This document shows, piece after piece, positions 2,583 through 56,400 of a stretch of DNA of 64,000 bases (positions are counted from its first letter, which is position 1; each line of letters opens with the position of its first letter). The notes beneath the pieces were generated by a model that worked only from the letters and a program-made list of their open reading frames with translations, was not told the DNA's origin and ran no database searches. The DNA comes from Candidatus Omnitrophota bacterium (lineage in GTDB: Bacteria > Omnitrophota > Gorgyraeia > Gygaellales > Profunditerraquicolaceae), in contig JAKQWZ010000019.1 in NCBI GenBank assembly GCA_029561735.1, forward strand, positions 19,388-83,387, read 5' to 3'. The translations under genes and the position numbers were made by a program.

Positions 2583-4823
2583 TTATGGCTGGTTTTTGTT
2601 TAAAGCGGTTAATTCCGTGATTATGTTGCCTGCCCAGCGGTAAATGTTATTTTCTGCCACTATCTTGCGCATATTCTGCATACGCCGCAGCCTTTCCTCT
2701 ACGGGCATTTCCACGGTAAACTTAATAGCGTCAGCGAATTCTTCTATTGAATACGGGTTTATCTGCACTGCATCAGTCAATTCTCTGGCAGCTCCGGTAA
2801 AGCGGCTAAGCATCAAAGCGCCGCTTGAATCAGACCGCGAAGATACATATTCTTTTGCCACCAGGTTCATTCCGTCGTGCAATGAGCTGACAATACAGAT
2901 ATCCGCCAAAAGATAATATGGCTTGACTTCTTCAGGAGAGAAATACCTCTTAAGATAAATTATCGGCCTCCAGATACCGTCGGAATATTTCCAATTTTTC
3001 TTTTCCACCAGCTCATCTATCTCGCCTATGAGGTCATGATAACGTTTTATGTGCGTACGGCTGGGGGCGGCCAGCTGGATAAAGACAAATTTATCCTTGT
3101 ATTGAGGGTATTTTTCTAAAAACCGGTCAATAGCAAGTATCCGCTCGACTATCCCCTTGGTATAATCTATCCTGTCAACTCCGACGGCGACTATCTTATC
3201 CTGCAGCTGCAATTCATGGCGGATTGATTCTATCTTTTCTGTCTCAGCTTTAGTCGTTTTAACATTGGCGTACCCGTCAACGCTGATCGGAAAAGACCTG
3301 ACAAACGTCTCCCTGCTGCCCCTGATAACGCTGAACTTTTCCGTATCAACGCGGCATTCAATCAGCCGGTTTGCCGTATCCAAAAAGTTATTGCAATGCA
3401 CCTGCACATGAAAACCGATCAGATCGCATGAGAGCATACCGTCAAGTATCTCATGCTGATAAGGACAGATGGCAAATACTTCGGGGTTCGGCCATGGTAT
3501 ATGCCAGAATAAGGCTATAGTGACATCAGGCCTTTTCTCCTTAATCATTTTGGCCAGCAGAGTAAAATGATAATCCTGTATGAAAACAAAGGGGTTCTTT
3601 GCAGGCAGTTCTTCTAAAACGCTATTGGCAAATTTCTGGTTGACCTCTTTATACATCTGCCAGTCAGTTTCCCTGAATATAGGGCGCGTATGGGTAACAT
3701 GGCATAGCGGCCACAGGCCTTCGTTGGAAAAACCATAGTAGTAACCGTCCTCTTCTTCTTTGTTCAGCCAGACCCTTTTTAGAATATAACGGTTATCTTC
3801 CGGAGGAACGCCTAATTTGTTCTTGGAGTTTATGAATTTTCTATCTGCATCGCCGCTCCCGTGGGCAATCCAGGTGCCACCGCATGCGCGTAATATCGGG
3901 TCTATGGCAGTGACAACGCCGCTGGCAGGGCGCACGCACTTAGGCGTGCCGCTTATATCATTAGAAACATGCATATAAGGCTCCCTGTTAGATACTACAA
4001 TAAAAGTATTCTCTCCGAGCTTGGCATGAATGAGGTCCCTTAATTTATCTTCTGTCCAGGCCTCTTCTTTTTGAATGCGGGCATGCGCTTTTTCGGATAC
4101 GGCCTTGCGGGCAACCCTCAAGCCCAATGCCACCTGCTCCACTTCGCTTACCAGTTTGCCAAATTCTCCCTTTTCCTCAAATGGGCGGAGTTTTTCCAGC
4201 TCGCCTTTTTGAAAATGAGTAAACCATTGCGTAAGCCTTCGCACAGGCAGAATAAAAATCTGCCTCTGGATTAACAGGGCAATCCCAATAATAGATACTA
4301 TTAGAATAATCAGGGTAATGCTTATCCTTTTCCACAAAACAGCCAGAGTGGTGAACAAATAGGATGTATCATAAACAACCTCTACTGCTCCCAGTAAACT
4401 TTCATCGTCTCCTAAAATCGGCAGGATATAGCTATACACCGAATAATCCCCGAATTTTTCTATTCCCCCGCGGGCAGCCCTGGCATTAAAAGAATCTTTG
4501 ACATAAGGCTTATCTTTCTGCCCCCAGCCGGAGATCCTTTCGGTAATAGCCAGGATCGCGCCTTCCTTATCATAAACTACGCAACCCTGCATCCTCTCTC
4601 TCTTCTGGAAGCTTTCCGCCAGGCGCTTAATTGATTTTAAATCATTATTAATCAGCGCATACCTTGCTGATAATTCAACGCTTTCAGCAACGGTCTTGGC
4701 CTTCCTTTTCAGGTCATCCATCAGCTTATCCTCTTCGTATTTGACCTGAATTATGCCGAAAATGGTCAATGCAGCCGATACTATAATCAAAATCGGCAAT
4801 ATGAATAATAAAATCCTCTTCAT
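2583..4823 (-). CDS. otsA: Trehalose-6-phosphate synthase (GT20) with an N-terminal TM-sensor-TM-HAMP module
   Basis: The C-terminal ~470 aa carry the GT20 signatures VVSNREPY, GGLWPLCH and IQDYHFTLL. The N-terminal ~280 aa contain two hydrophobic helices (about residues 5-25 and 165-188) around a ~140-aa predicted extracytoplasmic domain. A HAMP-like stretch follows (PVRRLTQWF...GEFGKLVSEVEQVALGL). Confidence 0.8.
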   Translation of the reverse strand: MKRILLFILPILIIVSAALTIFGIIQVKYEEDKLMDDLKRKAKTVAESVELSARYALINNDLKSIKRLAESFQKRERMQGCVVYDKEGAILAITERISGWGQKDKPYVKDSFNARAARGGIEKFGDYSVYSYILPILGDDESLLGAVEVVYDTSYLFTTLAVLWKRISITLIILIVSIIGIALLIQRQIFILPVRRLTQWFTHFQKGELEKLRPFEEKGEFGKLVSEVEQVALGLRVARKAVSEKAHARIQKEEAWTEDKLRDLIHAKLGENTFIVVSNREPYMHVSNDISGTPKCVRPASGVVTAIDPILRACGGTWIAHGSGDADRKFINSKNKLGVPPEDNRYILKRVWLNKEEEDGYYYGFSNEGLWPLCHVTHTRPIFRETDWQMYKEVNQKFANSVLEELPAKNPFVFIQDYHFTLLAKMIKEKRPDVTIALFWHIPWPNPEVFAICPYQHEILDGMLSCDLIGFHVQVHCNNFLDTANRLIECRVDTEKFSVIRGSRETFVRSFPISVDGYANVKTTKAETEKIESIRHELQLQDKIVAVGVDRIDYTKGIVERILAIDRFLEKYPQYKDKFVFIQLAAPSRTHIKRYHDLIGEIDELVEKKNWKYSDGIWRPIIYLKRYFSPEEVKPYYLLADICIVSSLHDGMNLVAKEYVSSRSDSSGALMLSRFTGAARELTDAVQINPYSIEEFADAIKFTVEMPVEERLRRMQNMRKIVAENNIYRWAGNIITELTALNKNQP

Positions 4824-4886
4824 TAAGCTCTCCTTAAAATAAAATTGCCACCTTGCCCTTAATGCAAGATGGCGGCCCGGCCATCT

Positions 4887-4914
4887 GAAAAAATCCTCCG
4901 GGAATATACCCCGG
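4887..4914 (-). terminator. Putative intrinsic terminator downstream of nadE
   Basis: On the minus strand there is a CCGGG/CCCGG stem with a 7-nt loop, followed by AGGAUUUUUU. It lies between the nadE stop (4955) and the otsA start (4823). Confidence 0.3.
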
Positions 4915-4954
4915 ACCCTTATTTATTATAACATTATATTAACAATTATCAAGC

Positions 4955-6631
4955 CTACCCCTTATACCCGTTAGTGATGGGCATGCGGCGGTCCCTGCCG
5001 AATGCCTTGGGCGTAATCTTAATGCCCGGCGGAGACTGCCTGCGTTTATATTCGCTCCTGTCCACTAAACGCATTACATCCAAAACCGTTTCTTTTTTAA
5101 AGCCGGACTTTACAATCTGATTTAACTCCTTATCTTCTTCCACATATGCTTTTAAAATAGGATCTAATTCCGCATAAGGCGGTAGCGTATCTTCGTCTTT
5201 CTGGTTATGCCTGAGTTCTGCCGTAGGCGGCTTGGTAAAAATACGTTCCGGAATGATCTGATGCACGGAATTTTTCCACCTGCAGATCTTATAAACCAGC
5301 GTCTTAGGGACATCTTTGACTACGGCCAGGCCTCCTGCCATATCCCCGTAAAGAGTGGCATATCCTGTGCTCATCTCGGATTTATTTCCTGTGGTAAGCA
5401 CCAGCCAGTGGAATTTATTAGATAAAGCCATAAGGATATTGCCGCGTATGCGGGCCTGAAGGTTTTCTTCGGTGATGTTTCTTTCCAGGCCAGCAAAATG
5501 AGGCTCTAATATCATCAAATACATCTTATATGCCTGCTCAATAGAAATATTTATAAATTGTATCCCTAAATTCCGGCAAAGCTGCTTAGCGTCAATCTCG
5601 GATTCCGGGGAAGAATAATGCGTAGGCATAAAAACGCCCGTAACATTATCTTTTCCCAATGCATCGGCAGCCACAGAAGCAACCAGCGCCGAATCAATCC
5701 CTCCGCTTACGCCGATAACTGCTTTGCCAAAACCGTTTTTACCCGCATAATCCTTTACTCCCAGCACCAGGGCCCGGTAGACCTCTTCCGGAGCAGTCAA
5801 AGCCTGAAAATGCCGTTTTGGCAATTTAGGTTTTTTCCGTAACGCCGGGTATTTTTCCAATAATATAACTTTTTTCGATCCAGCCCTGGCAGGAACCACC
5901 TTGAGGTCAACCATAAGCAAGTCCTCTTCAAAAGCAGCAGCCTTTTGAATAATATTCCCTTTTGCCGATACAACCATGCTTTGGCCGTCGAAAACCAGTT
6001 CATCCTGCCCTCCGGAAAGGTTCACATAAGCAATATCCACCCGGCTCTTTTTTGCCTGCCCTCTTAATATGGATTCCCTTAACTTTACTTTTCCGGCATA
6101 ATACGGCGAGGCATTAATATTTAAGACAAGTTTTGCGCCCAATTTCGCATGCATCATTGCCGGGCCGTCTTTATGCCAGATATCCTCGCAAATATTCACT
6201 GCGAACACCAATCCGCCGTAATTAAAAACCATGGTTTTTTCACCAGGTTCAAAATACCGCTCTTCGTCAAACACGCCGTAATTAGGCAAGAACATTTTAT
6301 GGTATATTCCGCGGATTTTGCCTTTATATACAATTGCTGCCGCATTATATAAAGACCCTCCATGCCGGTCTACAAAACCGATAACTGCGACTATGTCCCT
6401 GACTTCTCCGGCCAACTGCTTAAGTTCATGGATATTATCGGCGATAAATTTAGGTTTTAACAATAGATCTTCCGGCGGATAACCGGTAACTGCCAATTCC
6501 GGAAAACAGGCTATATCCACTCCGGCGTCTTCGCACCTTTTAAGATAATAGCGTATCTTGGAACAATTTGCCTCCAAGTCGCCGACTCGGCAATTAATCT
6601 GGGCTAAAGCTATTCTTATATTATTTTTCAT
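4955..6631 (-). CDS. nadE: Glutamine-dependent NAD+ synthetase (N-terminal nitrilase/CN-hydrolase domain plus C-terminal NAD synthetase domain)
   Basis: 558 aa. N-terminal carbon-nitrogen hydrolase region (CFPELAVTGYPPEDL). C-terminal PP-loop GVSGGIDSALVASVAA. Confidence 0.85.
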   Translation of the reverse strand: MKNNIRIALAQINCRVGDLEANCSKIRYYLKRCEDAGVDIACFPELAVTGYPPEDLLLKPKFIADNIHELKQLAGEVRDIVAVIGFVDRHGGSLYNAAAIVYKGKIRGIYHKMFLPNYGVFDEERYFEPGEKTMVFNYGGLVFAVNICEDIWHKDGPAMMHAKLGAKLVLNINASPYYAGKVKLRESILRGQAKKSRVDIAYVNLSGGQDELVFDGQSMVVSAKGNIIQKAAAFEEDLLMVDLKVVPARAGSKKVILLEKYPALRKKPKLPKRHFQALTAPEEVYRALVLGVKDYAGKNGFGKAVIGVSGGIDSALVASVAADALGKDNVTGVFMPTHYSSPESEIDAKQLCRNLGIQFINISIEQAYKMYLMILEPHFAGLERNITEENLQARIRGNILMALSNKFHWLVLTTGNKSEMSTGYATLYGDMAGGLAVVKDVPKTLVYKICRWKNSVHQIIPERIFTKPPTAELRHNQKDEDTLPPYAELDPILKAYVEEDKELNQIVKSGFKKETVLDVMRLVDRSEYKRRQSPPGIKITPKAFGRDRRMPITNGYKG

Positions 6632-10257: not shown

Positions 10258-10704
10258 CTATTTTTTCTTGGGGCTCTCCTCCAAACTGTTAAGCAGCTTC
10301 GTTACCCCGTCAATAAGCGCCTTTGGGCTTGCCGGGCATCCGGGAATATACGCTGACACCGGAATAACCGTATTTATTCCGGCTTTTACATTATAACAGC
10401 CTTTAAAAACCCCTCCTGTGCAGGCACAAGTCCCTACGGCAACAACAAATTTCGGTTCAGGCATCTGTTCATAAATCATTTTCAAACGGGATTCAATCTG
10501 GCGCGTAACCGGTCCGGAACATAAAAGCACATCCGCATGCCGGGGGGTACCTTTAAGCAAGACCCCGAAACGCTCCAGGTCATATGTCGGCGTCAGGCCG
10601 GCAATGATTTCTATATCGCAGGCATTACAAGCCCCGGTATTAAAATGCAATACCCACGGAGATTTACGCCTGCCCCAATTGACTATTTTTGTAATAACCC
10701 CCAT
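10258..10704 (-). CDS. Hydrogenase small subunit / NuoB-like [4Fe-4S] subunit (MbhJ/EchC)
   Basis: CNACDIE...GTCACTGGVF...IPGCPASP cysteine pattern typical of NuoB or group-4 small subunits. Confidence 0.8.
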   Translation of the reverse strand: MGVITKIVNWGRRKSPWVLHFNTGACNACDIEIIAGLTPTYDLERFGVLLKGTPRHADVLLCSGPVTRQIESRLKMIYEQMPEPKFVVAVGTCACTGGVFKGCYNVKAGINTVIPVSAYIPGCPASPKALIDGVTKLLNSLEESPKKK

Positions 10705-11052
10705 TTATTCTCCCTTCTTGCCCAATAAGACAAATAAGCCCGTAACCGCGCCCATAATATAAAAAAGCGCTATAGTAAAGGTATTGACGCTTTCAATAGG
10801 CACGGTAGCAATAACCAGCGCAACCACATGCAGGATAGTAAAGAAAAAAGCAAAAGGAAAAAACTGGCTGTAATCCGGCTGGATCATATGGCCTGTAAAT
10901 TCTTCGCCGCAGGAATAGGCTTTTTTCTCATCAGCGCTCTGGGCGGTCTTTCTCCTGAAAGAAAGCCGCGAAAACAAAAGTGCCGTAAAAAATATCACCA
11001 CAAAAAGTATTGTAAATGCGACTGCCGGGGACAATAGAAAATCTCTGGGCAT
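10705..11052 (-). CDS. Small integral membrane subunit of the hydrogenase/Mrp module
   Basis: 115 aa with three hydrophobic helices, in operon context. Confidence 0.4.
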   Translation of the reverse strand: MPRDFLLSPAVAFTILFVVIFFTALLFSRLSFRRKTAQSADEKKAYSCGEEFTGHMIQPDYSQFFPFAFFFTILHVVALVIATVPIESVNTFTIALFYIMGAVTGLFVLLGKKGE

Positions 11053-20585: not shown

Positions 20586-21331
20586 TAGCCAAACCTTCCC
20601 CTGATATACCCGTCGGTGCGCTGGTCTTTAGGGACCGTGAATATCCTGTCAGTGGTATCAATTTCAATTAATTCGCCTGATAGAAAAAACGCAGTCCTGT
20701 CTCCTACGCGCGCAGCCTGTTTAACATTGTTAGTGACAAGCACGATAGTGTATTCTTTTTTCAGCTCCAGCATCGCCTCTTCCACCTTGGCAGTAGAAAT
20801 CGGGTCCAGCCCTGAACAAGGCTCATCAAATAATATGACCTCCGGAGCTACTGCCAACGTCCGGGAAATGCACAAACGCTGCTGCTGGCCGCCGGACAGC
20901 TTAAATGCCGATTCATCAAGGCGGTCTTTTACTTCATCCCATAAGTATGATTGTTTTAAAGAACGTTCTACTATCTGGCCAATCTTTGCCTTATTTTTTA
21001 ATCCGTGCATCCTTATCCCGTAAGCGATATTTTCATAAATAGATAACGGCAGCGGCAGCGGCAAAGCAAATACCATTCCCACTCTTTTGCGTAAAGCTTC
21101 AACATCGGTATTCCTGATATTTAACCTGTCTAACTCAACGATCCCGCTCATCCTGAAATGCGGATTAAGCTCATTCAGCCGGTTTAGCATTCTGATAAAA
21201 GTGGTTTTTCCGCTATTAGAAGGCCCGATAATGCTAAGGATCTCATTCTGGCGCACCTCTATATTGACATTCTTAAGCGCCTGGGCTTTTTCAAACCACA
21301 CATTCAAATCATGCACTTCGAATTTTACCAT
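20585..21331 (-). CDS. pstB: Phosphate ABC transporter ATPase (canonical)
   Basis: Walker [10 protein letters not shown] and signature [13 protein letters not shown]. Confidence 0.85.
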
Positions 21332-26554: not shown

Positions 26555-27237
26555 AGCATTCTCGCTTTACGGTCCTGCCGGCAGGCATTAACGCACACAC
26601 CGCAGATATACTGATCCACTAATTTATTTTTCTGAAATTCCTTCAATTTTTCAAAACACTTAATATGGTCAAAATCCTGCGGGCTATTTTTTATAGCTCC
26701 TGCCGGGCATAGATTAACACATAAACAACAGGCGCCGCAATCTCTTTTTAACGGTTTATCGGTTTTTAAAGGCATATCGGTCAGAATAGTGGCAAGCCTT
26801 AACTGGCTGCCCAGTTTTTCGCTGACTAGCAGATTATTCCTTCCTATCCATCCCAACCCGGCTAATTGCGCTAATTTTTTATGCGATAAATGCGCGGTCT
26901 GGTTCTGCCAATCAAGTATTACCGAAGCCGGTATAGGAAAAGCCAGAAAGCCTTTTCTTTGGATGTAATTGGCGATTCTTAAAGCCGTTTGGTCCAGAAA
27001 AGCATTGGCTGTACGGTAATGATGAAAATAAATTTTGGTAGGAGCGTCAATTATTTCCTCTAATACCGCCTTTGAAAGCCGCGCACCTAAACAGACGGCC
27101 TTATCCAGTTTTTTTGAAACATCCTCCTTAATTGCAAATTCTTTACGTATGGCCGAAATATCCGCCACACCAAATAGATCAAGCCCTGCCGCAAGGCTGA
27201 ATTTCTTCAGGTCAGAGTAGTTTTTATTTTTATCCAT
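26551..27237 (-). CDS. queG: Epoxyqueuosine reductase QueG-like short protein (4Fe-4S)
   Basis: AGLGWIGRNNLLVSEKLGSQL block and CGACCLCVNLCPAGAI ferredoxin motif. At 228 aa it is shorter than canonical QueG, which usually carries an additional N-terminal cobalamin-binding domain. Confidence 0.45.
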   Translation of the reverse strand: MDKNKNYSDLKKFSLAAGLDLFGVADISAIRKEFAIKEDVSKKLDKAVCLGARLSKAVLEEIIDAPTKIYFHHYRTANAFLDQTALRIANYIQRKGFLAFPIPASVILDWQNQTAHLSHKKLAQLAGLGWIGRNNLLVSEKLGSQLRLATILTDMPLKTDKPLKRDCGACCLCVNLCPAGAIKNSPQDFDHIKCFEKLKEFQKNKLVDQYICGVCVNACRQDRKARML

Positions 27238-29089
27238 GTATTTTTCTTAAATAAACCATCAGCAAGCTGATTGCCGCCGGAGTCACCCCTGAAATTCGGG
27301 ATGCCTGCCCCAGATTTACCGGTTTAAAATTCTTAAGTTTTTCTTTTATTTCCCGGGATAAACCGTTTATCCCGGAATAATCAATATTGCCGGGGATACG
27401 GATCTTTTCCAGATTTTTAAACTTAGCCACCTGCGCAGACTGCCTTTTAATGAACCCTTCATATTTTACCTCAATTTCTATCTCTTGTTTAGCAAAATCC
27501 GGGATGTTAACCCGGCTTATCCGGGAGATTTTATCCAGGCCCATCTGCGGGCGCCTTAATAATTCGGCCAGGCTGACAGGATGGCTTATTTCAGCTGTGT
27601 TAAAATCAGCTAAAGCAGAATTTATCTGCGTATTGGGTTTGACCCGGGTAGTTTTTAACAATCTTATTCCGCTAAGAATCGCTTTTTGTTTTCTTTGGTT
27701 AGCCAGATATACTTTTTTGTTAACCAGCCCGTATTCATAGCCGGTTTTGCACAACCGCAGGTCAGCATTATCTTCTCTTAGAAGCAGCCGGTATTCTACG
27801 CGCGAAGTAAACATCCTGTAAGGCTCTTCAGTGCCTTTGGTTGTCAGGTCATCAATCAATACGCCGATGTAACTTGACGCGCGGTCTAAAATTAATGCCC
27901 TTTTGCCTTTGATTTTGGCTGCGGCATTAATCCCGGCAATCAGGCCTTGAGCAGCTGCTTCTTCATAACCGGTTGTGCCGTTGATCTGGCCGGCCAGAAA
28001 TAAATTTTTGATTAATTTTGTTTCCAAAGTCGGGTATAACTGGGTCGGCTCAACCACAGCATGCTCTATGCCGTAACCGAACCGTAATACCTTTGCCTTT
28101 TCCAGCCCCTGTATTGAATGTATAATCTGAAGTTGGACTTCCTCCGGCAAACTGGTAGATATTCCATTGGGGTATATTCTGCTGCAATGTAGGCCTTCCG
28201 GCTCCAGGAACACCTGGTGGCGCGGCCTGTCAGGGAATTTTACTATCTTATCTTCTATTGACGGGCAATACCTTACTCCGGTTGCCTTGATAATCCCGGC
28301 ATAAAGAGGCGACTTGTCCAGATTATCCATTATAATCTTGTGGGTCTGGGGATTAGTATAAACAATATGGCAGGGGACCTGCCGGCGTGTTATTTTTTTA
28401 GTTAAGAATGAAAACGGCTTGGCCGGATTATCCGGCTCCTGGATAACAGCCTTTGAAAAATCAATGGTATTCTTATCCAGCCTGGGGCAGGTGCCTGTTT
28501 TAAACCTTAATAAATTAAAACCCAGACTTTTTAGCGATTCCCCCAGCCCTATGCTTGCCGGCTCATCAATGCGCCCGGCACTGCAATGTTTCATCCCCAC
28601 ATGGATAACTCCGTCAAGGAATGTCCCGGTACAGATAATTACTGTTTTAGAATAAAACTCTTGGCCTTCAGTGGCAACTCCGCTTGTTATGCCATCGCGG
28701 ACTAAAATCCTTTTGACTTCTGCTTCTTTAATATCAAGATTTTTTTGTTTTTTAAGCCTCTGCTGCATGTATTGAGAATACAGCTGCATATCAATTTGAG
28801 CGCGCGAAGAATGTACTGCTTTACCTTTAGAGGCATTCAAGATGCGGAACTGTATGCCGCAGGCATCTGCTGCCTTGGCCATTTCCCCGCCTAATGCGTC
28901 AATCTCCTTGACCAGCTGACCCTTGCCCACGCCGCCGATTGCCGGATTACAACTCATCAAGCCAATATTATTCTTTTTAAAAGTCAATACCAGCGTTTTA
29001 CAACCAAGGCGCGAGCTTGCCAGGGCAGCTTCAATACCAGCATGCCCAGCACCAATTATAATCACATCATACTCAGGGACGGTTCTCAT
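27230..29089 (-). CDS. mnmG: tRNA uridine 5-carboxymethylaminomethyl modification enzyme MnmG (GidA)
   Basis: 619 aa with FAD-binding N-terminus YDVIIIGAGHAGIEAA and MnmG blocks throughout. Confidence 0.9.
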   Translation of the reverse strand: MRTVPEYDVIIIGAGHAGIEAALASSRLGCKTLVLTFKKNNIGLMSCNPAIGGVGKGQLVKEIDALGGEMAKAADACGIQFRILNASKGKAVHSSRAQIDMQLYSQYMQQRLKKQKNLDIKEAEVKRILVRDGITSGVATEGQEFYSKTVIICTGTFLDGVIHVGMKHCSAGRIDEPASIGLGESLKSLGFNLLRFKTGTCPRLDKNTIDFSKAVIQEPDNPAKPFSFLTKKITRRQVPCHIVYTNPQTHKIIMDNLDKSPLYAGIIKATGVRYCPSIEDKIVKFPDRPRHQVFLEPEGLHCSRIYPNGISTSLPEEVQLQIIHSIQGLEKAKVLRFGYGIEHAVVEPTQLYPTLETKLIKNLFLAGQINGTTGYEEAAAQGLIAGINAAAKIKGKRALILDRASSYIGVLIDDLTTKGTEEPYRMFTSRVEYRLLLREDNADLRLCKTGYEYGLVNKKVYLANQRKQKAILSGIRLLKTTRVKPNTQINSALADFNTAEISHPVSLAELLRRPQMGLDKISRISRVNIPDFAKQEIEIEVKYEGFIKRQSAQVAKFKNLEKIRIPGNIDYSGINGLSREIKEKLKNFKPVNLGQASRISGVTPAAISLLMVYLRKIHG

Positions 29090-29097
29090 TTTACCTT

Positions 29098-29134
29098 GGG
29101 GACGGTTCTGAAATACCTCACAGAAGTGTCCCCT
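29098..29134. repeat. REP hairpin element (family A), left flank of the RAYT gene
   Basis: gggacggttctgaaatacctcacagaagtgtcccct. An imperfect palindrome in which GGGACGGTTCTG pairs with CAGAAGTGTCCC. Confidence 0.6.
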
Positions 29135-29196
29135 ATTTTAAAAATTATGTTAGAAATTAACATTTGTTGCGTCTATTATCATAGGAGGTGATAGAT

Positions 29197-29673
29197 ATGC
29201 CCAGAACAGCGCGGTTTACAATCGAAAATGGATATTACCATATTATCACAAGGGGAAATCAAAAACAAATTGTTTTCAAGGAAGAGACCGATTACACTAT
29301 TTACTTAAATATTCTAAACAAATACAGGAAGCGCTATAAGGCCAAACTCTACTGCTACTGCTTAATGCCAAATCATGTTCACTTGCTTTTAGAAGTTTCT
29401 GAACCTCAAGCTTTACGCAAATTCATGAGTGGATTAAACTTAAGCTATACGATATATTTCAATGCAAAATACAATAAAGTTGGTCATCTTTGGCAAGATA
29501 GATATATAAGCAGACTGATTCATAAAGATAAATATCTGCTGGATTGTATAAACTATATTGAAACCAATCCAATCCGGGCAAATCTGGTCCAAGATATCAC
29601 AATATATCCCTGGAGTAGCTATACGGCTAAAATGGATCAAAATAACAAAATGTTAGATGTACCCGAGATTTAA
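29197..29673 (+). mobile_element. REP-associated tyrosine transposase (RAYT, IS200/Y1 HUH family). The only plus-strand gene in the window.
   Basis: The HUH motif HVHLL and a downstream WQDRY tyrosine are present. AGGAGGTG lies 6 nt upstream of the ATG. The gene is flanked by inverted family-A REP hairpins, so it is not a TIR-bounded IS. Confidence 0.75.
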
Positions 29674-29685
29674 TAATTAGGCTAG

Positions 29686-29745
29686 AGGGGACACTTCTCA
29701 GCACAAAATCAGAACCGTCCCTAGAGTAATTTGAGAACCGTCCCT
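29686..29745. repeat. REP element (family A), right flank of the RAYT gene in inverted orientation, plus a partial 13-nt copy
   Basis: aggggacacttctcagcacaaaatcagaaccgtccct (29686-29722) and gagaaccgtccct (29733-29745). The partial copy overlaps the apgM stop codon. Confidence 0.6.
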
Positions 29746-31027
29746 ATTCTTTGGCGAACTTCACTAGTAAAGGCATAATATCCATGCCTTTAATTTCACC
29801 AATTGAGCCAAGTTTGGCGGCATTTTCAGAATAAGACTTAGTCCCGTCGGGCTTGATTTTGCCTCCGGCGACTAATAACGGAACGGGGTCTGCTGAATGC
29901 GCTTTTATCGCGCATACAGTAGAATGATCTGCGGTAACTGCAACTATTGTATTATCAATATCTAATTTCGGTAAAATATTGGCAAAAAAATACTTATCAA
30001 TCGCTTCAATAATCTCTTTTTTTAATTTAAAATCTCCGTCGTGTGCTGGCTCATCAGGCCCTTTGATATGCACATAGATACCATCAAAAGTTTTTAAGGA
30101 ATCCAGCGCGATCTTTGCCCAGACCGGATAATCCACGTCAAGATGCCCTGTGGATGAAGGGATATCAATGATATCCATTCCGGTAAGCAGCGCAATCCCT
30201 TTTTCCACCGGCATCTGCACAAAAGAGCCGAATTTCATATTAAACAAACTGGTAATATCCGGGAATTTCGGCAAGTGGTCTCCGGCGTCACGGGATAAAA
30301 TCACGTTACCGGGCATTTTCTTTTCGGAAACTCTTTTTTTATTTATTGCCGCCTCATTTAACACCTGATTGGATTTCTGGGTAAACTCATTTAAAAGCGC
30401 TGCCGCCTCTTTTGCTTCAGCTGAATTCTCATATCCGGGCATGGCTTGAGAAACCGCAACCAGATTCTCAAATTTCTCTTTAGCCACTCCAAAAACGCCT
30501 TCGCGGTCATATGCCGGGTCTGTATTGGTGATCCAACCTGATAATTTTGAACGCATCCCCCTGATAACCAATATTCCGCGGTGGCCTATAGTATTTTTAA
30601 ATTCAAAAGTTCCGTTGGAAAGCGTAACCTTGGAATTGATTTCTTTAGATAATGCGGTTGCCTCTTCAGTAGTCAGATTCCTGCCTACTCTGCGGTCAAT
30701 AATCTTCTTGCCGTCTTGGGCAACAGTGGCAAAATTAACCCGAAACGCCACATCGCCGTCGTTTACCTTTAAGCCTTCGGCAAAAGATTCCAGCGGACCC
30801 CTGCCGGTATAATATTTATGCGCATCGTATCCTAATAAGCTAATAACCGCAATATCTGATTCCGGGGCAATACCTTTGGCAACCGGATAAACTATTCCTG
30901 TTTTACCGCTTTGCGCCAGTTGATCAAGGTTTGTAGTTACGGCTGCCTCAAGCGGGGTTTTATTCCCCAGCTCTTTTACCGGAAGATCGCCTAAACCATC
31001 AAGGACTACATAGAGTATTTTTTTCAT
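29744..31027 (-). CDS. apgM: Cofactor-independent phosphoglycerate mutase, archaeal ApgM type
   Basis: MKKILYVVLDGLGD N-terminus and metalloenzyme-superfamily blocks. Start set at the internal ATG, which abuts the nrdJ stop. The longer ORF start would overlap nrdJ. Confidence 0.65.
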   Translation of the reverse strand: MKKILYVVLDGLGDLPVKELGNKTPLEAAVTTNLDQLAQSGKTGIVYPVAKGIAPESDIAVISLLGYDAHKYYTGRGPLESFAEGLKVNDGDVAFRVNFATVAQDGKKIIDRRVGRNLTTEEATALSKEINSKVTLSNGTFEFKNTIGHRGILVIRGMRSKLSGWITNTDPAYDREGVFGVAKEKFENLVAVSQAMPGYENSAEAKEAAALLNEFTQKSNQVLNEAAINKKRVSEKKMPGNVILSRDAGDHLPKFPDITSLFNMKFGSFVQMPVEKGIALLTGMDIIDIPSSTGHLDVDYPVWAKIALDSLKTFDGIYVHIKGPDEPAHDGDFKLKKEIIEAIDKYFFANILPKLDIDNTIVAVTADHSTVCAIKAHSADPVPLLVAGGKIKPDGTKSYSENAAKLGSIGEIKGMDIMPLLVKFAKE

Positions 31028-31031
31028 AGTT

Positions 31032-33329
31032 TTAACATTTTGAATAACCGCAGGCATGGCATTTAACGCATCCTTCTTCATGCCTGAGCGCTCCCCCGCA
31101 ATCAGGGCATACGCCTATAATATCACCATGGGCAGCATTACTCACCGGTATTTCAGCCACATCGGTATGCGAATGTTTCATCGGCACCTCCACTTCCATG
31201 GCGGCTAATTGTTCGGCTTCATCGCTAACCAGCCTTTTTTCCACTACCCGGGCAATCGCGTCAGAACAAGAAAATATCCTCTGGCCTTTTTCCCACGAAG
31301 GAGACGGGCAACGTATATTACGCAACTGTTCAATGATAGCTTTTACTTCAATCCCTGACCTAAAACCCAGAGAAACCAGCCTTCCGATCGCCTCAAGCTG
31401 GCTGGCAGCGCATCCGCCGGCTTTACCCATCTGGGTAAATAATTCAAAGGGTTTACCGTCTCCATCAGCATTAATAGTCACATAAAGATTACCGCAGCCG
31501 GTTGCAACTTTTGTAGTTGTCCCGGTAACCACTTCCGGCCTTGGCCGCGGGGCAATTTTACCTGCCTCAACTATCTGGGCAGGCTGTTGTTTTAAAGCCT
31601 GCTTGCCGACATTGAGCACCTGTTCTTCGCGGCTTCCGTCGCGGTAAATTGTTATCCCCTTGCATCCAAGCTCATAAGCCGATAAATAAGCATTTCTGAC
31701 GTCTTCAATGCCGGCTTCATGGGAAAAATTGATTGTTTTACTAACGGCATTATTCGTAAACTCCTGAAAAGCCGCCTGCATCTTAACATGCCATTCCGGA
31801 GTGATATCATGCGAGGTAACAAAAACTTTTTTGATATCTTCCGGAATCCCTTCAATATCTTTTAATGAAGAGCTTTCGGCAATCTTTTCCATCAACTGGC
31901 GGCTGTAAAACCCTCTTTCGCGGGCCGCTTCTTCAAAAAGAGGCTCCACCTCAACCAGCTTATCATTATCCATTACATTGCGGTAATAGGAAATAGCAAA
32001 AAGCGGCTCTATGCCGGAAGAGGTCGGGCCGGCAATAATGCTGATAGTGCCGGTAGGAGCGATCGTAGTCAGGGTAGCATTTCTCAATTTTAGCGGATTT
32101 TCTTTTTTATCAAAAATACTGTCCTTAAATGCCGGGAAGGTGCCTTTTTCTTTGGCTAATTCCTGAGATTTCTTCGTAGCTTCTTTGAGTATAAAACCCA
32201 TTACTTTTCTGCCCAACTCAACTGCATCTTGCGAATTATAAGGTATGCCTAAACGTATAAGCATGCTTGCCCAGCCCATTACGCCCAAACCGATTTTACG
32301 CGTGCGTTTAGTGGCTTTTTCAATCTCCGGAATCGGGAATTTATTCACATCAATCAGATTATCCAGAAAATGCACTGCAACGCGTACTACTTCTTTTAAC
32401 CTGTCCCAGTCTATTTCATACCTTGCAGGCCCGACCTTTTTACAGAATTTAATCAGGTTAATTGAACCAAGGTCGCAGCTTTCATAAGGCAATATAGGCT
32501 GCTCTCCGCAGGGATTAGTGCTTTCAATCTTACCTAATTTAGGCGTAGGGTTATCTTTATTCAGCCGGTCAATGAAAATTATTCCCGGCTCTCCGTTTTT
32601 ATGCGCCTGCTTTACCACCAAATCAAATACGTCTTTAGGATTCAGCCTCTGCACGGGCTTTTGCGTATGCGGGTCAATTACATCATACTCCTGCCCCGAT
32701 TTTAACTTCTCCATAAACTCATCGGTTATGGCCACCGATATATTAAAATTATTTATATCCTTATTATTGTCCTTGCATACGATAAATTCCATAATATCAG
32801 GATGGTCTACCCGCAATATACCCATATTTGCGCCTCTGCGGGTGCCGCCCTGTTTTACTGCTTCGGTAGCTGCATCATAAACCTTCATAAAAGAGACCGG
32901 GCCGCTGGCCACTCCTCCGGTAGTTTTGACAACGGAATTTTTTGCGCGCAGCCTTGAAAAAGAAAACCCTGTTCCGCCGCCGGATTTATGGATCATCGCC
33001 GTAGCCTTCAGGGTCTCAAAGATAGATTCCATTGAATCTTCAACAGGAAGCGTAAAACAGGCACTTAATTGCCCTAAGTGGCGGCCTGCATTCATCAGGC
33101 AGGGGGAATTCGGCATAAACTCAAATTCGCTCATTACGCGCAGAAAATCTTTTTCCAGCTCAGCAATCTGTTTTTCTGTTTTATTGTAAAGCTTTTCTGC
33201 GCTTGCCATGGCGCGTGCCACTCTGGTAAGCATTTCCAAAGGAGTCTCTACTACTTTGCCGTTTTCATCCTTCTTCAGGTACCTTCTCTCCAAAACCTTT
33301 AAGGCATTTTCCGATAATTTCAGCGCCAT
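31032..33329 (-). CDS. nrdJ: Adenosylcobalamin-dependent ribonucleotide reductase (class II, NrdJ) with a C-terminal Zn-ribbon
   Basis: 765 aa with an NPCGEQP active-site block and C-terminal CPDCGG...CVKCHACG. Confidence 0.85.
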   Translation of the reverse strand: MALKLSENALKVLERRYLKKDENGKVVETPLEMLTRVARAMASAEKLYNKTEKQIAELEKDFLRVMSEFEFMPNSPCLMNAGRHLGQLSACFTLPVEDSMESIFETLKATAMIHKSGGGTGFSFSRLRAKNSVVKTTGGVASGPVSFMKVYDAATEAVKQGGTRRGANMGILRVDHPDIMEFIVCKDNNKDINNFNISVAITDEFMEKLKSGQEYDVIDPHTQKPVQRLNPKDVFDLVVKQAHKNGEPGIIFIDRLNKDNPTPKLGKIESTNPCGEQPILPYESCDLGSINLIKFCKKVGPARYEIDWDRLKEVVRVAVHFLDNLIDVNKFPIPEIEKATKRTRKIGLGVMGWASMLIRLGIPYNSQDAVELGRKVMGFILKEATKKSQELAKEKGTFPAFKDSIFDKKENPLKLRNATLTTIAPTGTISIIAGPTSSGIEPLFAISYYRNVMDNDKLVEVEPLFEEAARERGFYSRQLMEKIAESSSLKDIEGIPEDIKKVFVTSHDITPEWHVKMQAAFQEFTNNAVSKTINFSHEAGIEDVRNAYLSAYELGCKGITIYRDGSREEQVLNVGKQALKQQPAQIVEAGKIAPRPRPEVVTGTTTKVATGCGNLYVTINADGDGKPFELFTQMGKAGGCAASQLEAIGRLVSLGFRSGIEVKAIIEQLRNIRCPSPSWEKGQRIFSCSDAIARVVEKRLVSDEAEQLAAMEVEVPMKHSHTDVAEIPVSNAAHGDIIGVCPDCGGALRHEEGCVKCHACGYSKC

Positions 33330-47481: not shown

Positions 47482-50400
47482 TTATCTTATCCTACCTACA
47501 GGGACTGTCCCCGAGGAGCCATTGTTTACTTCAGGCGACGAAGGGGACTGTCCCTTACTCGGGGACACTTCTGTGAGGGATTTCAGAACCGTCCCTACTT
47601 TGCCGCGGACAAATAAATTGCAAGCAGGCGCTAATTCAACCGGCATCCGGCCCCGGCTCTCAATCCTCTGCCAATCTTGGCCAGAGCTATTAAATTTCAT
47701 CGCATCTTCAACATCAGCAATAACAGTTTCTACATATTCAAAAATACCCCGTGCCTGGCAATGAAGCAATAATGATAACTGCGGTTTGGTCAGGGGATAA
47801 CGCAAAGCCACATAATTTCCTTGTCCTGCCTGTTGGGCAGCCCAATCTACGATTTTGCACCACGTCTTTACGCGTTCATAGAAATTCTGGCAGAATGTGC
47901 TGATAGATAAATATAAGCTATTATCCGACGTGGTCAAGATTGCTCCGGCTACAGCCACAAACCTGTTGTTGTGCTCGATCAAATATACGTTCCTGTTTAA
48001 GGCGCGCATGATAAACCCTTCGCCGAGGTTCGTATCATGACCAGTAAGCGTAGTGCCCCACTGAGCCGTAGTCATGTCTGCGTATATATTAAAAGCTTCT
48101 TTTAATAATTCCAAAAACGGCAAATCTTTATCGCTGACAAATTTAATCGCAAATGCCGGATTATTAGTTTTAAAAGATAGCCACAACATCATTATCACTA
48201 TTTCGGCGATTGCGTTTTTTACCAGCCTGTCCGGATTGCTGCCAAGTATCACCAGCAGGCGGCTGGCAACCCTTTCAATAAGCAAAGGGTTATCCAGGCA
48301 AAGTTGAACTAAAGCATTTGTCAAATCATGATTAATACAGCATGGCTGCATATTGATATCAGCAGAATTAATGATCATCTGATCGATATCTTCATCAGTT
48401 GGTATAGTCAAACCATCTTTTACTTGCGATTTAGGCATGACCGAGCCCTCTTTTTCATTTTGGCGAGGGAATCCCGAGCCGCTTCCATTAGGCTTTGAGC
48501 GGCGAGGGGCTCCGCACCCCCCGTCCGCCGGCGGTTCAGGACGTTTGCCTTCTGCAGGATATGTGCCACCCAAATCTTCAATAGCTGTAGGGACTGTCCC
48601 CGCCGTGTCATTTTGCTGGGCGCTCAAAGGGGACTGTCCCTTATCCGGGGACACTTCTGTGAGAGATTTCAGAACCCTGCCTTGCCGGCAGGCAGGCGTC
48701 CCTCCTTTTATATATCCGATTTCAAAAGCATAGGTTAACAAATCAGTGTTGTTGCGCTCAAACCATCCGGATAACTCCTTGAACTCTAGCTCTATATAAT
48801 GATGCAGATACATCCTGCCGATGCTGGTATTAACATAAACGTTGTATTCAAACTGGCGCTTTGGATAACGCAACCTGTTGATCTCATCTCCGAATATTGA
48901 ATCAATATTATTCCACCAAAGATTATGGCACCCTAAAGAACAAGGATCATCGCAAGGCCGGTCTTTGCCCAGCTCATACGAAAAACTTCTACCCGCTCTA
49001 AGCATCACTATAGTAAAATCATCTTTTTGCCAGGGAATAGCCAATCGATTTTCACCGCTGACATAAAAATACCTTTGGCAAACTCTGCCCCTCCAATTTG
49101 AACGGTTAAATCTCAAATGGATGAGCGGAAATAAATTTCGCAGTAAATATTTGAAAGAGGCCGGATAGGGTATCTGTTCCCAGCAATCTACTTCTTTATA
49201 TGTAGTATCCATTAAGCCATCTCCGCCCATACTATCATCAACAAACAAAAGGTTAACAGTGCTTTGGGCTACTATCTCTGCCCATTTATCCATAAATATT
49301 AAATCCGCCTCGCTCTCATGCAGCGAAGGAAGAACTTCGATGGTTGTATCCAGATAATACTCAATTTTTCCCTCATCCAGCCACTCTTGAGCCAAGATAA
49401 ATTCTGCCTGTTTTAACGGTATTCTCCTCTGCTGCGATAACTGCGCAGCAAGCCGGTCAAACTCAAGCTTAGCCTGTTCGGGGTTTTCCAACTGCTGCCA
49501 CCATTGATCAATTGCCCAGACATACGGGACTCCGCTGCGGGCCATGCCAATGACCAATACTGATTTTTTAGTCTGCCTGCTTAAATCAATAGCTACATCA
49601 TTGACATTGCCGGCATCAGCTGCGCTGTGGGCAATCAAACCCTCCAACTGCCAGCGCCGGTAAGCGCTTCCCCGGCTAAAACGGGCTAACTTAATTTCTT
49701 CATCTAATAAATACAGCTGGCTTTTTGTTTCCTCCTGCTTTATTTCCAAACACTGCACTCCCGGGCAAGACGGAATCATTAACAACGGTTCCGGCCCTGG
49801 ATCAATACCGCGAAAAACATTGATCAGAAAATCAAATGCATCCGGATCTTGCTGCGGATAAATTTTACGGATCATGCCGGCCAATTGCTCGCCTAAACAG
49901 TATCCGATTTTGCCTTCTACTTCTTCTACTTCAATTAATTCAGTGCCTTGCGGATTAAATGCAAGGATATATTCCCGAACCCTTTTTATTGCTTCCTCTT
50001 GCGGCAATCCTACTAAAGTAGAACCAAAATTTGATCCTTGCTCATAATTATCTCCCTGCCGCACCCAGCCCGAAGCCAAAACAGCAAAACAAGTGGCAAA
50101 ACAATTATTAGTATCACTATCACACAAACCTAACGCGCATTCCAGGAAATGGCCTGCTTCATGGCAAAATGTATGTTTTTGCCAATGATCTTGCAGGCTT
50201 ATATACTTCCCATATCTGCTATGCTGGCCGTTTATCATGCAATCCGGCAGATTATTAATTTCTTTTTGTGTATCTATTACATAATCTAATGAAAACCAGG
50301 AAAACATGCCTGAAACAATTGTCATAACATAAAATATGAACCAATGATGGCTGTGGAGAACAGGATATAATAACGACAAATATAAGGATATATTAATCAG

Positions 50401-53400: not shown

Positions 53401-56400
53401 AGGAAGCTGGTCGCCGATTTCTTCACTATCATCTTCAAACCTGTATCCGTTTAAAGAAAGATTATTCGGATCCCTTAAGTAGCTCTTAATAGCGCTGCGC
53501 ATAGCATTTTGAGCTGCCCCGCGTAAGTACTTCGCTAAGCTTCCCTTATTATGGTCATATCTTCCGGAGCGTAGCGCCTGATCCATCCTTTCTTCGCATA
53601 GAACAATTAATTCATCTGTTTCCAAACCCGGATAATCTCTGTGTGTTTTCACAGCCTCTATGCGGGCTATCCATCTGTGCTTTTCTAAAATATCTTCTTC
53701 ACTTTCGCCAAATCCGTTTAGCTCATTACTCCTTCTGGTAATCCGGCGCAAAATATCCCGGCGCTCTTTTTTTCTGCCTGCTTCGATAAATAAAGCCACC
53801 TCATCATTGGCTAATTGTTTTTCGGCTTGAACTAATTCTACGTCTGACAAAGCGCTTTCTGCGGGCTGATTAGCCTCTGCAGCCATCGCCTCTGCCTCCA
53901 AAGTTAAGCCGATCTGCCTGCGCACCACATAAGCCACATACTGCTTCCACATCATTTGCTGGTGTTTAGCTACTATAGCTTCCCGGCGCCTTCTTTCTAA
54001 TCGCGCTTTCTGCTCTGCTCTTTCTTGCTGCCGGGATATCCGCGCTGCTTTACTGGCTTCTTTTTGCGCCAAGCGCTCTACTTCTTTTGCCTTTTTAAAT
54101 TCCGCAACAGCATTATCTGCATCTCTGCGGATTTCCTCCTCCCATTCCCCGGGGCTTTGCGCAATAAAATCCAATCCGGTATGGGTTTCAAAAACTTGCG
54201 GTTGCATTTCTGCTTCAATTTCAAGCTTACGCACTTCCAAGCTCTTTAAAGCCCTGCCTACTCCGGATATATGCCAACCACTCTTTCTCTGCCCAGAACT
54301 GGAATAAATCCTTACCGGAGCCATGTCAGCTAAAATAGCTCTGACTTTATCTGCATCAACGCCATATTTTTCCAGCAACTTAACCAAATTTTTAGCCGCC
54401 ACATTACGCATACTGAATACCGAATCTTTAGTTTTATCCATTGCCTGCATTATGGCCGGCATATTCTGTTTATCAACAAAATATGCTTTTAGTATCGCGG
54501 TATTGTCTTTGGTGAATTTCAAGCCGTCTATCACCCAGCCTCCGGCGATAACAGCTTCCAGCTCAACAATAATCTGGCCCAAGTATTTTGGTAAATCTGC
54601 TAACCTATCTTTAGTTAAAACCGGCCCGATTATCTTTTTATCCAGCTCCGATTCCAGTATTTGGTAAACCCTGCTTTTTGCTTCACCCAAAGCCCGGGCA
54701 ACTGCTTTTACTCCGTCGCAGCGGTAAGCAGCGATATTCTGCACTCTTTCTAACTCAAAATTTGCGGCAATCTGCTCTTCAGTTAAAGCTTCCAAATAAT
54801 ACAGTTTTAAAGTTTCCCTCCACACCGGCCTCAGGCCTTTAACCGAGGCTTGCGGATTTGTTACAATCCTGATTATTTCCCGGCTTAATTCCTGATCAGT
54901 TATTACAGGAACAACTGATCCATTTTGCACCAGCCCGAACAATACAGGTAACCCTACAAGTAGGGACGGTTCTGAAATTACCTTCAAAGGTGTCCCCGAC
55001 AGGAACGCTTCTGTGAGGGAATTCAGAACCGTCCCTAAAGAGGCAACAAGCTCGCGGCCAAAGAGCAAGGCCGCCAGAGCCAGCAAGCCTACAACCACCG
55101 CAGCAATAACTCCTATACGACCCTTGCTATCTAGAAGTAGGTTATCGGCAACCGCTTTAGCTGCCCAAAATTCTTCAGCATAAAATCTTTCCAGCTCTGC
55201 TCTTTTATTGCGATAAGCCGGATTAAAAGCAGGGATATTATGCGGCGGCACTGCGGGATACCGGAAATACCCCATCAGATCATCGATCATCGGGAATACT
55301 TCACTATGAATAGTATCATCGTCTTCTAAATACATCTGCTCCTGAGCTAGCCCTATATCCTTAAAGGCAAGGCCAAAATCAGCAACGTGCATAATTTTTA
55401 GTTTACCGTCAGGCTCTCTAATAAGCCTGAAATTACCCTTATGCATATCAGAACGCGGAGCTGTTATTGTTCCGTTTCCTAAAACAGAGGTTTTCATCCT
55501 TGAGTTAATCCAACCTAAAGCGTGCAAACGCGCAAGAATGCTTAACACCTGCTCCGACACGCTCTGCGCCTGCTCAAAATCAAGCATATCCGGACGGATA
55601 TTTTCCAGCCTTTTCGCGTCCTGATATTCAAAAGCCGTGATAACCAGCGGCCCTTGCGCAGTGTAGACGATCTGCCTGCCAAAGGCGTCAATCACACAAT
55701 CGGTATTGACTAATTTAAAAATGGGCAATGTTACCCCTGCGTTAGCGCCAAAATTATTTACCAGATCAGCAGAAACATCAAAATCACTTTCCGATAAGAG
55801 ATGCCTGCCGTATTCAAACATATCCCCGGTCATTTTAAATTCCATAGCATCAGTCACAACACCTGACTGCATGATAAAGATTATCATCCTGCGGAAAGAT
55901 TCGGTTATAGGCGTCATATATACATCTCCAAATAAATGCGTGTATATACCATTATCCAAAGCGTATTGCAACGGCGGACGCGGATCTTTGGCGCTTATTT
56001 CAGGCGGATATTCCTGACGTAATTCACTGCCCAAATGGATAAGCTCGCGCAAATTCTGCATATCAATGAACAAATTCAGGATACCCGGATGTTTCTGCGC
56101 AAAACTACTAACAGCTATATCTTCTCCGGAATCAAGGAAAGTAAATTTACTGCAGGAAGTAGCGATTACAGCAATCAAACATACCGCAAGCAGGGACGGT
56201 TCTGAAATTACCTTCAAAGGTGTCCCCTCTGGTGACAGTTGTGTAAAGAAAATCAAAACCACCCCTAACAATATCACTTGCATAGGTTTTTCACTAACAG
56301 CGGTACGGATTTTACCCGATAGCCGATAAAACCAATCTTTTACTCTGGTAAATAATTCCGGCCAGCAAGAAAGTTCTTTGGCTTCTTTATGGAGAGAAAT

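Follow-up and report, generated by a model that had tools for sequence, protein, structure and literature searches.

The window analysed here, a stretch of 64,000 nucleotides (nt) from a Candidatus Omnitrophota bacterium, carries a gene for a REP-associated tyrosine transposase (RAYT) between mnmG and apgM. The gene is bracketed by two inverted hairpins of the repetitive extragenic palindromic (REP) type. Judged by sequence comparison, this is most likely a REP/RAYT system that is resident in Candidatus Omnitrophota and passed on vertically, with a predicted single-domain Y1 HUH nuclease/transposase of 158 amino acids (aa). From left to right, the locus contains the following features:

27230-29089, minus strand: mnmG, identified via its Pfam domain in identical contigs; the ATG is the reverse complement of 29087-29089.
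29075-29087, plus strand: left outer half-site, AGGGACGGTTCTC; read on the minus strand, this segment gives the G of the mnmG ATG and codons 2 to 5 (RTVP).
29088-29097, minus strand: left spacer, in which the start codon of mnmG has its AT and AAGG resembles a Shine-Dalgarno motif (sequence read directly).
29098-29133, plus strand: left REP hairpin, GGGGACGGTTCTG-aaatacctca-CAGAAGTGTCCCC, with a 10-nt loop and an imperfect stem containing a conserved internal GG/GT mismatch.
29148-29196, plus strand: conserved block upstream of the RAYT gene, TGTTAGAAA-N13-CGTCTATTAT-N3-AGGAGGTGA.
29197-29673, plus strand: RAYT gene, 158 aa, with the HUH residues H60 and H62, W99-Q100, and the catalytic Tyr120 in YIETNP.
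29687-29722, plus strand: right REP hairpin, GGGGACACTTCTC, loop, CAGAACCGTCCCT, inverted with respect to the left hairpin.
29733-29745, plus strand: right outer half-site, GAGAACCGTCCCT; together with A29746, the final two bases make up the TAG stop of apgM (29744-29746) on the minus strand.
29744-31081, minus strand: apgM, also identified via its Pfam domain in identical contigs.

The protein contains Y1_Tnp as its sole domain (Pfam, E=1.6e-18) and passes the NCBIfam equivalog REP_Tyr_transpos (NF047646) marginally, with 81.6 bits at a cut-off of 80. TnpA-REP of Escherichia coli (4ER8) was the top match in the PDB by sequence and also the top fold match (E=7e-8, TM 0.67) of the AlphaFold model, which had a pLDDT of 84.6. 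The residues H60, H62, W99, Q100, Y120, N124, and P125 were unchanged in 20 homologues. The motifs NHVH, WQ, and YIETNP characterize the RAYT of the window, and the last of these reads YIELNP in orthologues. There are more than 1000 homologues; nearly all of those listed have a length close to 158 aa, and the ones with a named source belong to Candidatus Omnitrophota. The ratio of nonsynonymous to synonymous substitution rates (dN/dS) was 0.12 in comparison with a 91% identical relative and 0.07 with an 82% identical one, and synonymous sites were saturated beyond that. The RAYT gene is under strong purifying selection.

Both sides of the gene belong to a symmetric unit at 29075-29745, in which the order on each side is hairpin, 11 nt, and then GAGAACCGTCCCT, giving inverted 59-nt ends at 29075-29133 and 29687-29745. 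Read directly, 37 of the 38 arm positions are equal in the left and the right end, 6 of the 11 spacer positions, and 3 of the 10 loop positions. The half-site AGGGACGGTTCTC has an 11-nt core in common with the hairpin arm, and the motif GGGGACAC sits in the inner arm on both sides of the RAYT gene. With one mismatch or none, the 11-nt core GGGACGGTTCT was present 8 times in the window compared to 0.39 times in shuffled sequences, an excess of about 20-fold, and 8 copies were reached in none of 100 shuffles. The left hairpin folds with −11.4 kcal/mol (z = −2.7) and its opposite strand with −9.1. Since the internal stem mismatch is fixed, the two strands of a REP hairpin fold differently.

The original prediction had recognized a Y1 HUH gene of the RAYT type between inverted REP hairpins with dispersed copies, and the Pfam and NCBIfam matches, the fold, the core count, and the folding of the hairpins bear this out. 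Its anatomy was also accurate. There are 8 nt (29090-29097) between the mnmG ATG and the hairpin, the half-site at 29733-29745 runs into the apgM stop at 29744-29746, and the mnmG codons for M-R-T-V-P repeat 11 nt of the REP terminus, as AGGGACGGTTCTC at 29075-29087 has the 11-nt core of the hairpin arm. The symmetry, with the left outer half-site mirroring the right one, had been overlooked.

The foot of the hairpins did not fit the arrangement called “classical” in that prediction. Among 102 distinct 5′ flanks of REP arms, only a Y at −2 and an A at −1 were conserved, a G was not present at −3 or −4, and the tetranucleotide GT[AG]G was not found. The class of CGTC-tagged REPs was considered because the arm contains CGTC. 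Its members have an unpaired terminal CGTC, a stem of 8-9 bp starting with AT, a loop of 4-5 nt, and a CCA tail (Di Nocera 2013, PMC3733652); here, the CGTC is inside a 13-position stem and the loop has 10 nt, and this class was ruled out. A terminator scan yielded nothing at the REPs, and no T-run followed the hairpins on their 3′ side. Lacking the T-run, they are not intrinsic terminators, and this role was rejected.

The gene order mnmG, RAYT, apgM, and class II ribonucleotide reductase (RNR; 31032-33329 in the window, 765 aa, without an intein) was kept at RAYT identities of 91% (L074; L numbers designate the compared loci), 82% (L075), 69% (L076), 67% (L077), and 66, 60, and 60% (L029, L030, and L079). 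L079 was the only additional syntenic Omnitrophota locus gained from a metagenome scan. An eighth syntenic genome, L078, is a second assembly with neighboring genes nearly identical to those of L077. Synteny down to 60% RAYT identity argues against a recent insertion and for an old resident gene of this locus, so that the element is not “wedged in” between its neighbors, as had been proposed. In each of the nine other genomes inspected, the RAYT gene was located between inverted repeats with the same arms. These are the eight syntenic genomes and L021, where a 54% identical relative is located elsewhere, beside a cinA-like gene. The distance between the hairpin and the mnmG ATG was 8-10 nt in the seven syntenic genomes with an ATG start; L076 has none. 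The right half-site overlaps the apgM stop in five genomes (window, L074, L075, L076, and L029). The left RTVP half-site (MnmG begins with MRTVPEYDV in the window) is limited to the subclade of 82-100% identity (window, L074, and L075) and was not present in the 60-69% relatives, in which mnmG starts with MNDYDV, MYDV, or MEKYDV.

The REP arms and the block upstream of the RAYT gene remained conserved in distant relatives although the synonymous sites of the RAYT gene were saturated there. The upstream block was kept in eight genomes (window, L021, L029, L030, and L074-L077). By consensus match only, it resembles a sigma-70-like promoter (TAGAAA-17-TATTAT) with a strong ribosome-binding site behind it. 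Promoter-like hits were not more frequent than expected from shuffling. Conservation beyond the saturation of the synonymous sites suggests a conserved promoter or operator.

Two of the syntenic loci deviate in other ways. In L076 (675-2579), mnmG has no ATG at the usual position; the frame is open through the REP arm (…SPEPSLINDVIVVGAG), which would be read as PEPSL. The gene seems to begin within the hairpin, where a TTG could serve as start codon, and this would be a second, independent route by which the repeat supplies the N terminus of MnmG. The RNR of L076 (4485-9428) has 1647 aa and contains an intein plus LAGLIDADG domains. In L077, the 67% relative, a gene for a PilZ-domain protein (10523-10849) is located between RAYT and apgM, and both outer half-sites are missing there.

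The distribution of the repeats was analyzed by an exact scan for GGGACGGTTCTG-N15-GTGTCCC (19 specified bases) with one genome per species. This yielded 68 loci, about 50 of them in at least 12 Omnitrophota metagenome-assembled genomes (MAGs). Several repeat-bearing MAGs labelled Planctomycetia are taken to be mislabelled Omnitrophota because two of them carry RAYT homologues 54-55% identical to that of the window. The strict matches numbered about 18 in MAG JAHISH01 and about 14 in CAZXJX01, both being lower bounds; the arrangement of five matches present in the window recurred in none of the contigs scanned. Most copies were doublets of two inverted REPs (REPINs). The arms were constant but the loops specific for the species, and loops that differ by lineage on constant arms are expected when REP populations are copied within a genome. 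Of 63 copies in Omnitrophota loci, 48 were extragenic, with an expectation of 17% because random positions in these loci were genic in 83% of cases. Such an excess would be typical of REPs, but all four sites of the window away from the RAYT gene and at least 12 clusters in MAG JAHISH01 lie inside giant ORFs. The additional tandem half-site was present in several copies elsewhere, so that one form of the element regularly includes it.

Other repeats appeared outside this phylum. Rumen Clostridia MAGs (L037 at 4180-4960, also L039, L045, L050, L053, L057, L062, L067, and L073) contain a multi-copy composite repeat, GGGACAnTGGGGACGGTTCTGCTGTGTCTGTCCCCAGTGTCCC. In L037, this repeat lies on both sides of a RAYT-like gene whose HUH region has been lost but whose C-terminal helix-turn-helix (HTH) has been kept. 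Tandem arrays of a unit of about 46 nt starting with GGGGACGGTTCTGTTCC were present at L069 (7735-7907), L018, and L035 (Propionicimonas MAG).

That gain or loss of the repeats continues is best supported by a polymorphism between the window and L001. The RAYT protein of L001 is identical to that of the window, and the two DNAs have an identity of 99.4% on the right side of window position 21325 and of 96.8% on its left side. The window contains the empty site:

21325-21331, no strand assigned: TTACCAT, at the overlapping stop and start of two genes for a phosphate-ABC-type transporter; L001 (2052-2135) bears a 70-nt extended REP here.

This insert, missing from the window, is composed of AGGGACGGTTCTC, 10 nt, AGGGACGGTTCTC, a loop, and CAAAGGTGTCCCC plus 11 nt. 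On either side of it is one copy of an imperfect 7-nt duplication (TAATCAT/TTACCAT), by which the stop of the one gene and the start of the other are preserved. The insert has the half-site-plus-hairpin form of the RAYT ends, and its spacer agrees with that of the right end at 10 of 11 positions. This indicates that the half-site in mnmG is part of the element. The original prediction had left open whether the mnmG codons are a remnant of insertion, a captured target site, or a coincidence. They are better read as the outer half-site of an extended REP unit, which is mirrored at apgM, common to the 82-91% relatives, and contained in the mobile 70-nt unit; coincidence does not account for this, and target-site capture is not needed.

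All four repeat sites of the window outside the RAYT locus are located in a giant open reading frame (ORF), which continues in frame through each of them:

47485 to at least 63999 (off the window end), minus strand: giant ORF, more than 5500 codons.
47500-47596, minus strand: composite repeat, AGGGACTGTCCCC-N30-GGGGACTGTCCCT-N5-REP, in the last 38 codons of the giant ORF, translated into ...GTVLKSLTEVSPSKGQSPSS...
48589-48681, minus strand: second copy of the composite repeat, partly degenerate, in frame in the giant ORF.
54962-55036, no strand assigned: REPIN, two inverted REPs separated by 4 nt, in frame (GTVLNSLTEAFLSGTPLKVISEPSL); fold −23.6 kcal/mol, z = −6.6.
56192-56266, no strand assigned: REPIN, one arm of which has decayed, also in frame in this ORF.

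The original prediction had recognized the same repeat family in this ORF but counted fewer than these four sites. Unrelated domains, namely Methyltransf_4, Methyltransf_11, two Sigma70_r4_2, and B12-binding plus Radical_SAM, were found in the giant protein, in agreement with the class of Omnitrophota giant proteins called “multi-enzyme” (bioRxiv 10.64898/2026.06.07.730766). In the giant-gene literature of this phylum that was examined, including that study, palindromes, hairpins, and RAYTs are not mentioned. The doublet at 54962-55036 folds as one long hairpin. Both REPINs are positioned between hydrophobic, transmembrane-like stretches, and the REP-coded peptides of the giant protein include GTVLNSLTEAFLSGTPLK. 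No repeat was present in any of the seven other intergenic gaps of at least 60 nt in the window.

An exhaustive search identified P0121, a 5714-aa orthologue of the giant protein with 64% identity, which retains the REPIN-coded peptide at both REPIN sites; an empty site for these REPINs was not found in it. A fragment with 78-83% identity, P0122, is 13 aa shorter at the 55-kb site. In MAG JAHISH01 (L026, L027, L038, L040, L041, and L044), at least 12 REP clusters are in frame in giant ORFs, using several frames, with the recurring peptides GTVLKPRSEVSP and GTLLSTASEPSL; one contig of 17 kb is a single open frame with at least six clusters. Short perfect palindromes, GGGACTGTCCC, were also present beside a REP in inverted pairs in the window (47500-47512, 47543-47555, 48589-48601, and 48629-48641). 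They look like collapsed REPs with joined arm ends and a lost interior, and similar motifs adjoin REPs in other MAGs (L006, L017, L023, and L034).

The branch of the family was assigned by motif table and relatives, and not by the hidden Markov models of the authors of the subclasses. Subclass 2.1 (Quentin 2018, PMC6006769) corresponds to RAYT Group 1 (Bertels 2017, PMC5581495) and was equated with the TIRYTs by Quentin et al. Its motifs are NHVH or NH[YF]H, W[EQ] or FQ, and YIELNP or Y[IV]HLNP, and its proteins have a median of 238 aa and a C-terminal HTH (Bac_DnaA_C, HTH_23, or HTH_28) (PMC6006769). The inverted repeats of TIRYTs have GGGGWSAS in common (Di Nocera 2013, PMC3733652). NHVH, WQ, and YIETNP of the window fit this table, and the flanking repeats carry GGGGACAC, matching GGGG[AT][CG]A[CG]. 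The differences are the length of 158 aa without the C-terminal HTH, which is also missing from the more than 1000 Omnitrophota homologues, and the dispersed hairpin REPs and REPIN doublets.

More distant relatives point in the same direction. The metagenome scan was evaluated for 80 loci of at least 600 matches, which were mostly distant (32-60% identical). Among the matches listed, those outside the 158-aa clade (mostly 32-52% identical) had 195-340 aa and FQ and WE variants of the motif. Bac_DnaA_C was present in two of five distant relatives scanned, once above and once below the Pfam cut-off, and was seen at 46% identity. The inverted repeats on both sides of distant relatives contained GGGGTCAG, GGGGACAC, or GGTGACAG. 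One relative from Clostridiales was an HUH-deleted remnant with a C-terminal HTH, and its repeats contain GGGGACGGTTCTG. On these grounds, the RAYT of the window is filed as belonging to, or deriving from, the subclass 2.1 branch, and the system as one of the RAYT type that would work like those of E. coli and Pseudomonas. The missing GT[AG]G foot, the motifs, and the relatives thus separate it from the “classical” arrangement and place it with TIRYT, subclass 2.1, and Group 1.

The REPtron of E. coli (TnpA-REP, 4ER8; subclass 2.2, Group 2) also has a single-domain Y1 HUH protein (158 compared to 165 aa), a gene between inverted imperfect hairpins with an internal mismatch, and repeats dispersed in the genome, often as inverted doublets. 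The identity between the two proteins is only about 14-22%, the motifs of TnpA-REP are DHLH, WE, and YIHYNP instead of NHVH, WQ, and YIETNP, the hairpin foot of the window lacks the GTAG guide tetranucleotide, and each end has an additional tandem half-site. The REPIN-RAYT systems of Pseudomonas (Bertels & Rainey 2011, PMC3116915) agree with the window in REP doublets that form long hairpins, as at 54962-55036, a RAYT under purifying selection, and lineage-specific repeat populations. The RAYT of the window, present once in the 64 kb and at a conserved locus in eight other genomes, is probably also single and vertically inherited like theirs. They differ in the RAYT group. Moreover, the arms of the window family are not species-specific but conserved over many species of the phylum, and every copy in the window away from the RAYT gene is intragenic.

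By analogy to TnpA-REP of E. coli and TnpA of IS608, the RAYT would bind the imperfect REP hairpin on single-stranded DNA, and the conserved internal mismatch would allow it to tell the strands apart. Tyr120 and the metal site at H60/H62 would then cut and rejoin the DNA beside the hairpin, and REP units would be copied or moved as a lone hairpin, as a hairpin with the tandem outer half-site, or as REPIN doublets. The RAYT gene itself would not move, because its 59-nt ends have grown into the neighbors and supply the ribosome-binding site, the start, and codons 2-5 of mnmG and the stop of apgM. This reading is considered probable: directed by the hairpin, Tyr120 and the HUH site would cleave and join single strands and thereby disperse the REP units, with the gene locked in place by the overlaps with mnmG and apgM. 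The same analogy makes the RAYT the presumed enzyme responsible and extends to the predicted chemistry and cleavage site.

Several observations weigh against this reading. The sole polymorphism could be a deletion, or it could have been imported by recombination, and the shift from 99.4% to 96.8% identity suggests that a recombination boundary coincides with the repeat. Target sites are not normally duplicated by Y1 transposases, and the imperfect 7-nt duplication is unexpected for such an enzyme. The REPIN peptides of P0121 argue that at least two of the giant-ORF copies predate the split from this 64% orthologue. They are old, give no indication of current activity, and are silent on the present. 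The original prediction had named the RAYT as the active mobiliser because of the giant-ORF copies; the mobiliser part is supported by the polymorphism between strains of 99% identity and by purifying selection, but the cited copies do not carry it. That the arms are so extremely conserved between species could be due to a role of the hairpins in the host instead of recognition by a transposase. Finally, REPINs were reported for Group 2 and 3 RAYTs only (bioRxiv 10.1101/2021.07.10.451892), and no REPs were reported around genes of subclass 2.1 (PMC6006769).

Alternatively, the RAYT may be a domesticated HUH protein with a host function, for instance in the processing of single-stranded DNA at replication forks or in regulation, with the hairpins as conserved cis-elements (sites of protein binding, or 5′ and 3′ structures of the mnmG and apgM mRNAs), no mobilisation, and REP copies elsewhere that are relics. 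The fixed locus and the purifying selection would suit such a housekeeping gene, as would the hairpin 8-10 nt 5′ of the mnmG start in the seven syntenic genomes with an ATG, the nearly invariant arms, the age of the giant-ORF copies, and the description of Group 1 RAYTs as co-opted and without REPINs (bioRxiv 10.1101/2021.07.10.451892). It does not explain, however, the gain or loss of a REP between strains of about 99% identity, the copying within genomes implied by lineage-specific loops on constant arms, or REP loci that differ between genomes and are often REPIN doublets; moreover, the hairpins, having no T-runs, do not serve as intrinsic terminators. Domestication is therefore unlikely, albeit the most serious competitor of a REP-dispersing RAYT.

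An autonomous insertion sequence of the IS200/IS605 type that recently landed between mnmG and apgM is very improbable. The inverted hairpin ends around a transposase gene speak for it, and the fold of the RAYT model also matches the TnpA proteins of IS608 and ISDra2, which rank after 4ER8. Such elements would share the HUH/Tyr fold, subterminal hairpins, and, by analogy, the single-strand DNA chemistry. Nevertheless, the RAYT is present once in the window and at a fixed locus, no tnpB accompanies it, the Tyr motif is Y-x-x-x-N-P (YIETNP), the signature of class 2, and not Y-x-x-x-Q, the NCBIfam IS200 model reached 24.4 bits, below its cut-off of 55, and the ends overlap essential start and stop signals of both neighbors. 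The occupation of the locus in eight other genomes, down to 60% identity, effectively refutes this explanation. Chance or low-complexity similarity unrelated to the gene, for which only the shortness of each arm speaks, is refuted by the core count reached in none of 100 shuffles, by the same arms beside orthologues in nine other genomes, and by the 68 loci with a pattern of 19 specified bases.

With a REP-dispersing RAYT as the probable explanation, the system is a counter-example, from an uncultured phylum, to the REPIN literature (Group 2 and 3 only) and to Quentin et al. (no REPs at subclass 2.1): hairpin repeats surround a 2.1-type core without an HTH, and these repeats are dispersed, form doublets, and differ between strains. 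Systems of this kind are known; its novelty consists in the phylum, the family branch, the architecture with the extended half-site, the overlaps with the start and stop of the neighbors, and the translated copies in giant genes. A 158-aa protein with a predicted DNA substrate of 36-59 nt, the strands of which are set apart by a mismatch, also offers a tractable system for repeat recognition without GTAG. The ends bearing the mnmG start and the apgM stop illustrate how a gene becomes impossible to lose.

The copies in the giant ORFs are palindromic repeats translated inside Omnitrophota giant proteins. Rickettsia palindromic elements, reportedly described by Ogata in 2000, and the REPs of Opitutus terrae are similar in being in-frame palindromes in protein genes that add 12-30 residues, some of them N-terminal. 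The window family differs in that its hosts are mainly giant multi-enzyme ORFs and that it is accompanied by a cognate RAYT gene. REPs inside genes have been described in Opitutus terrae and Rickettsia (PMC3733652), and no dedicated transposase was reported for the CGTC-tagged rickettsial repeats (Di Nocera 2013, PMC3733652). In the REP consensus, four of the six frames are open, which would allow the repeats to act as in-frame “linkers.” A more far-reaching and doubtful idea builds on this: an HTH-less offshoot of Group 1/2.1 might maintain a phylum-wide REPIN population, and where intergenic space is scarce, the repeats might be absorbed as such “linkers” at gene starts, stops, and inter-domain segments and may have aided the fusion into multi-enzyme giant ORFs.

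Concerning the remainder of the window, minus-strand open frames of at least 100 aa cover 97.7% of it, and the RAYT gene is its sole plus-strand gene, as originally stated. The other sizeable plus-strand ORFs are shadows of minus-strand frames; the one at 769-1296, for example, overlaps a 370-aa minus-strand ORF and a DUF5752 gene. Scans of the window for tRNAs and Rfam families gave nothing at or close to the RAYT locus. At 4867-4918 on the minus strand, just upstream of a 746-aa minus-strand ORF (2583-4823), the Rfam scan revealed a motif of the nhaA-I riboswitch type with 47.3 bits at a gathering score of 37.

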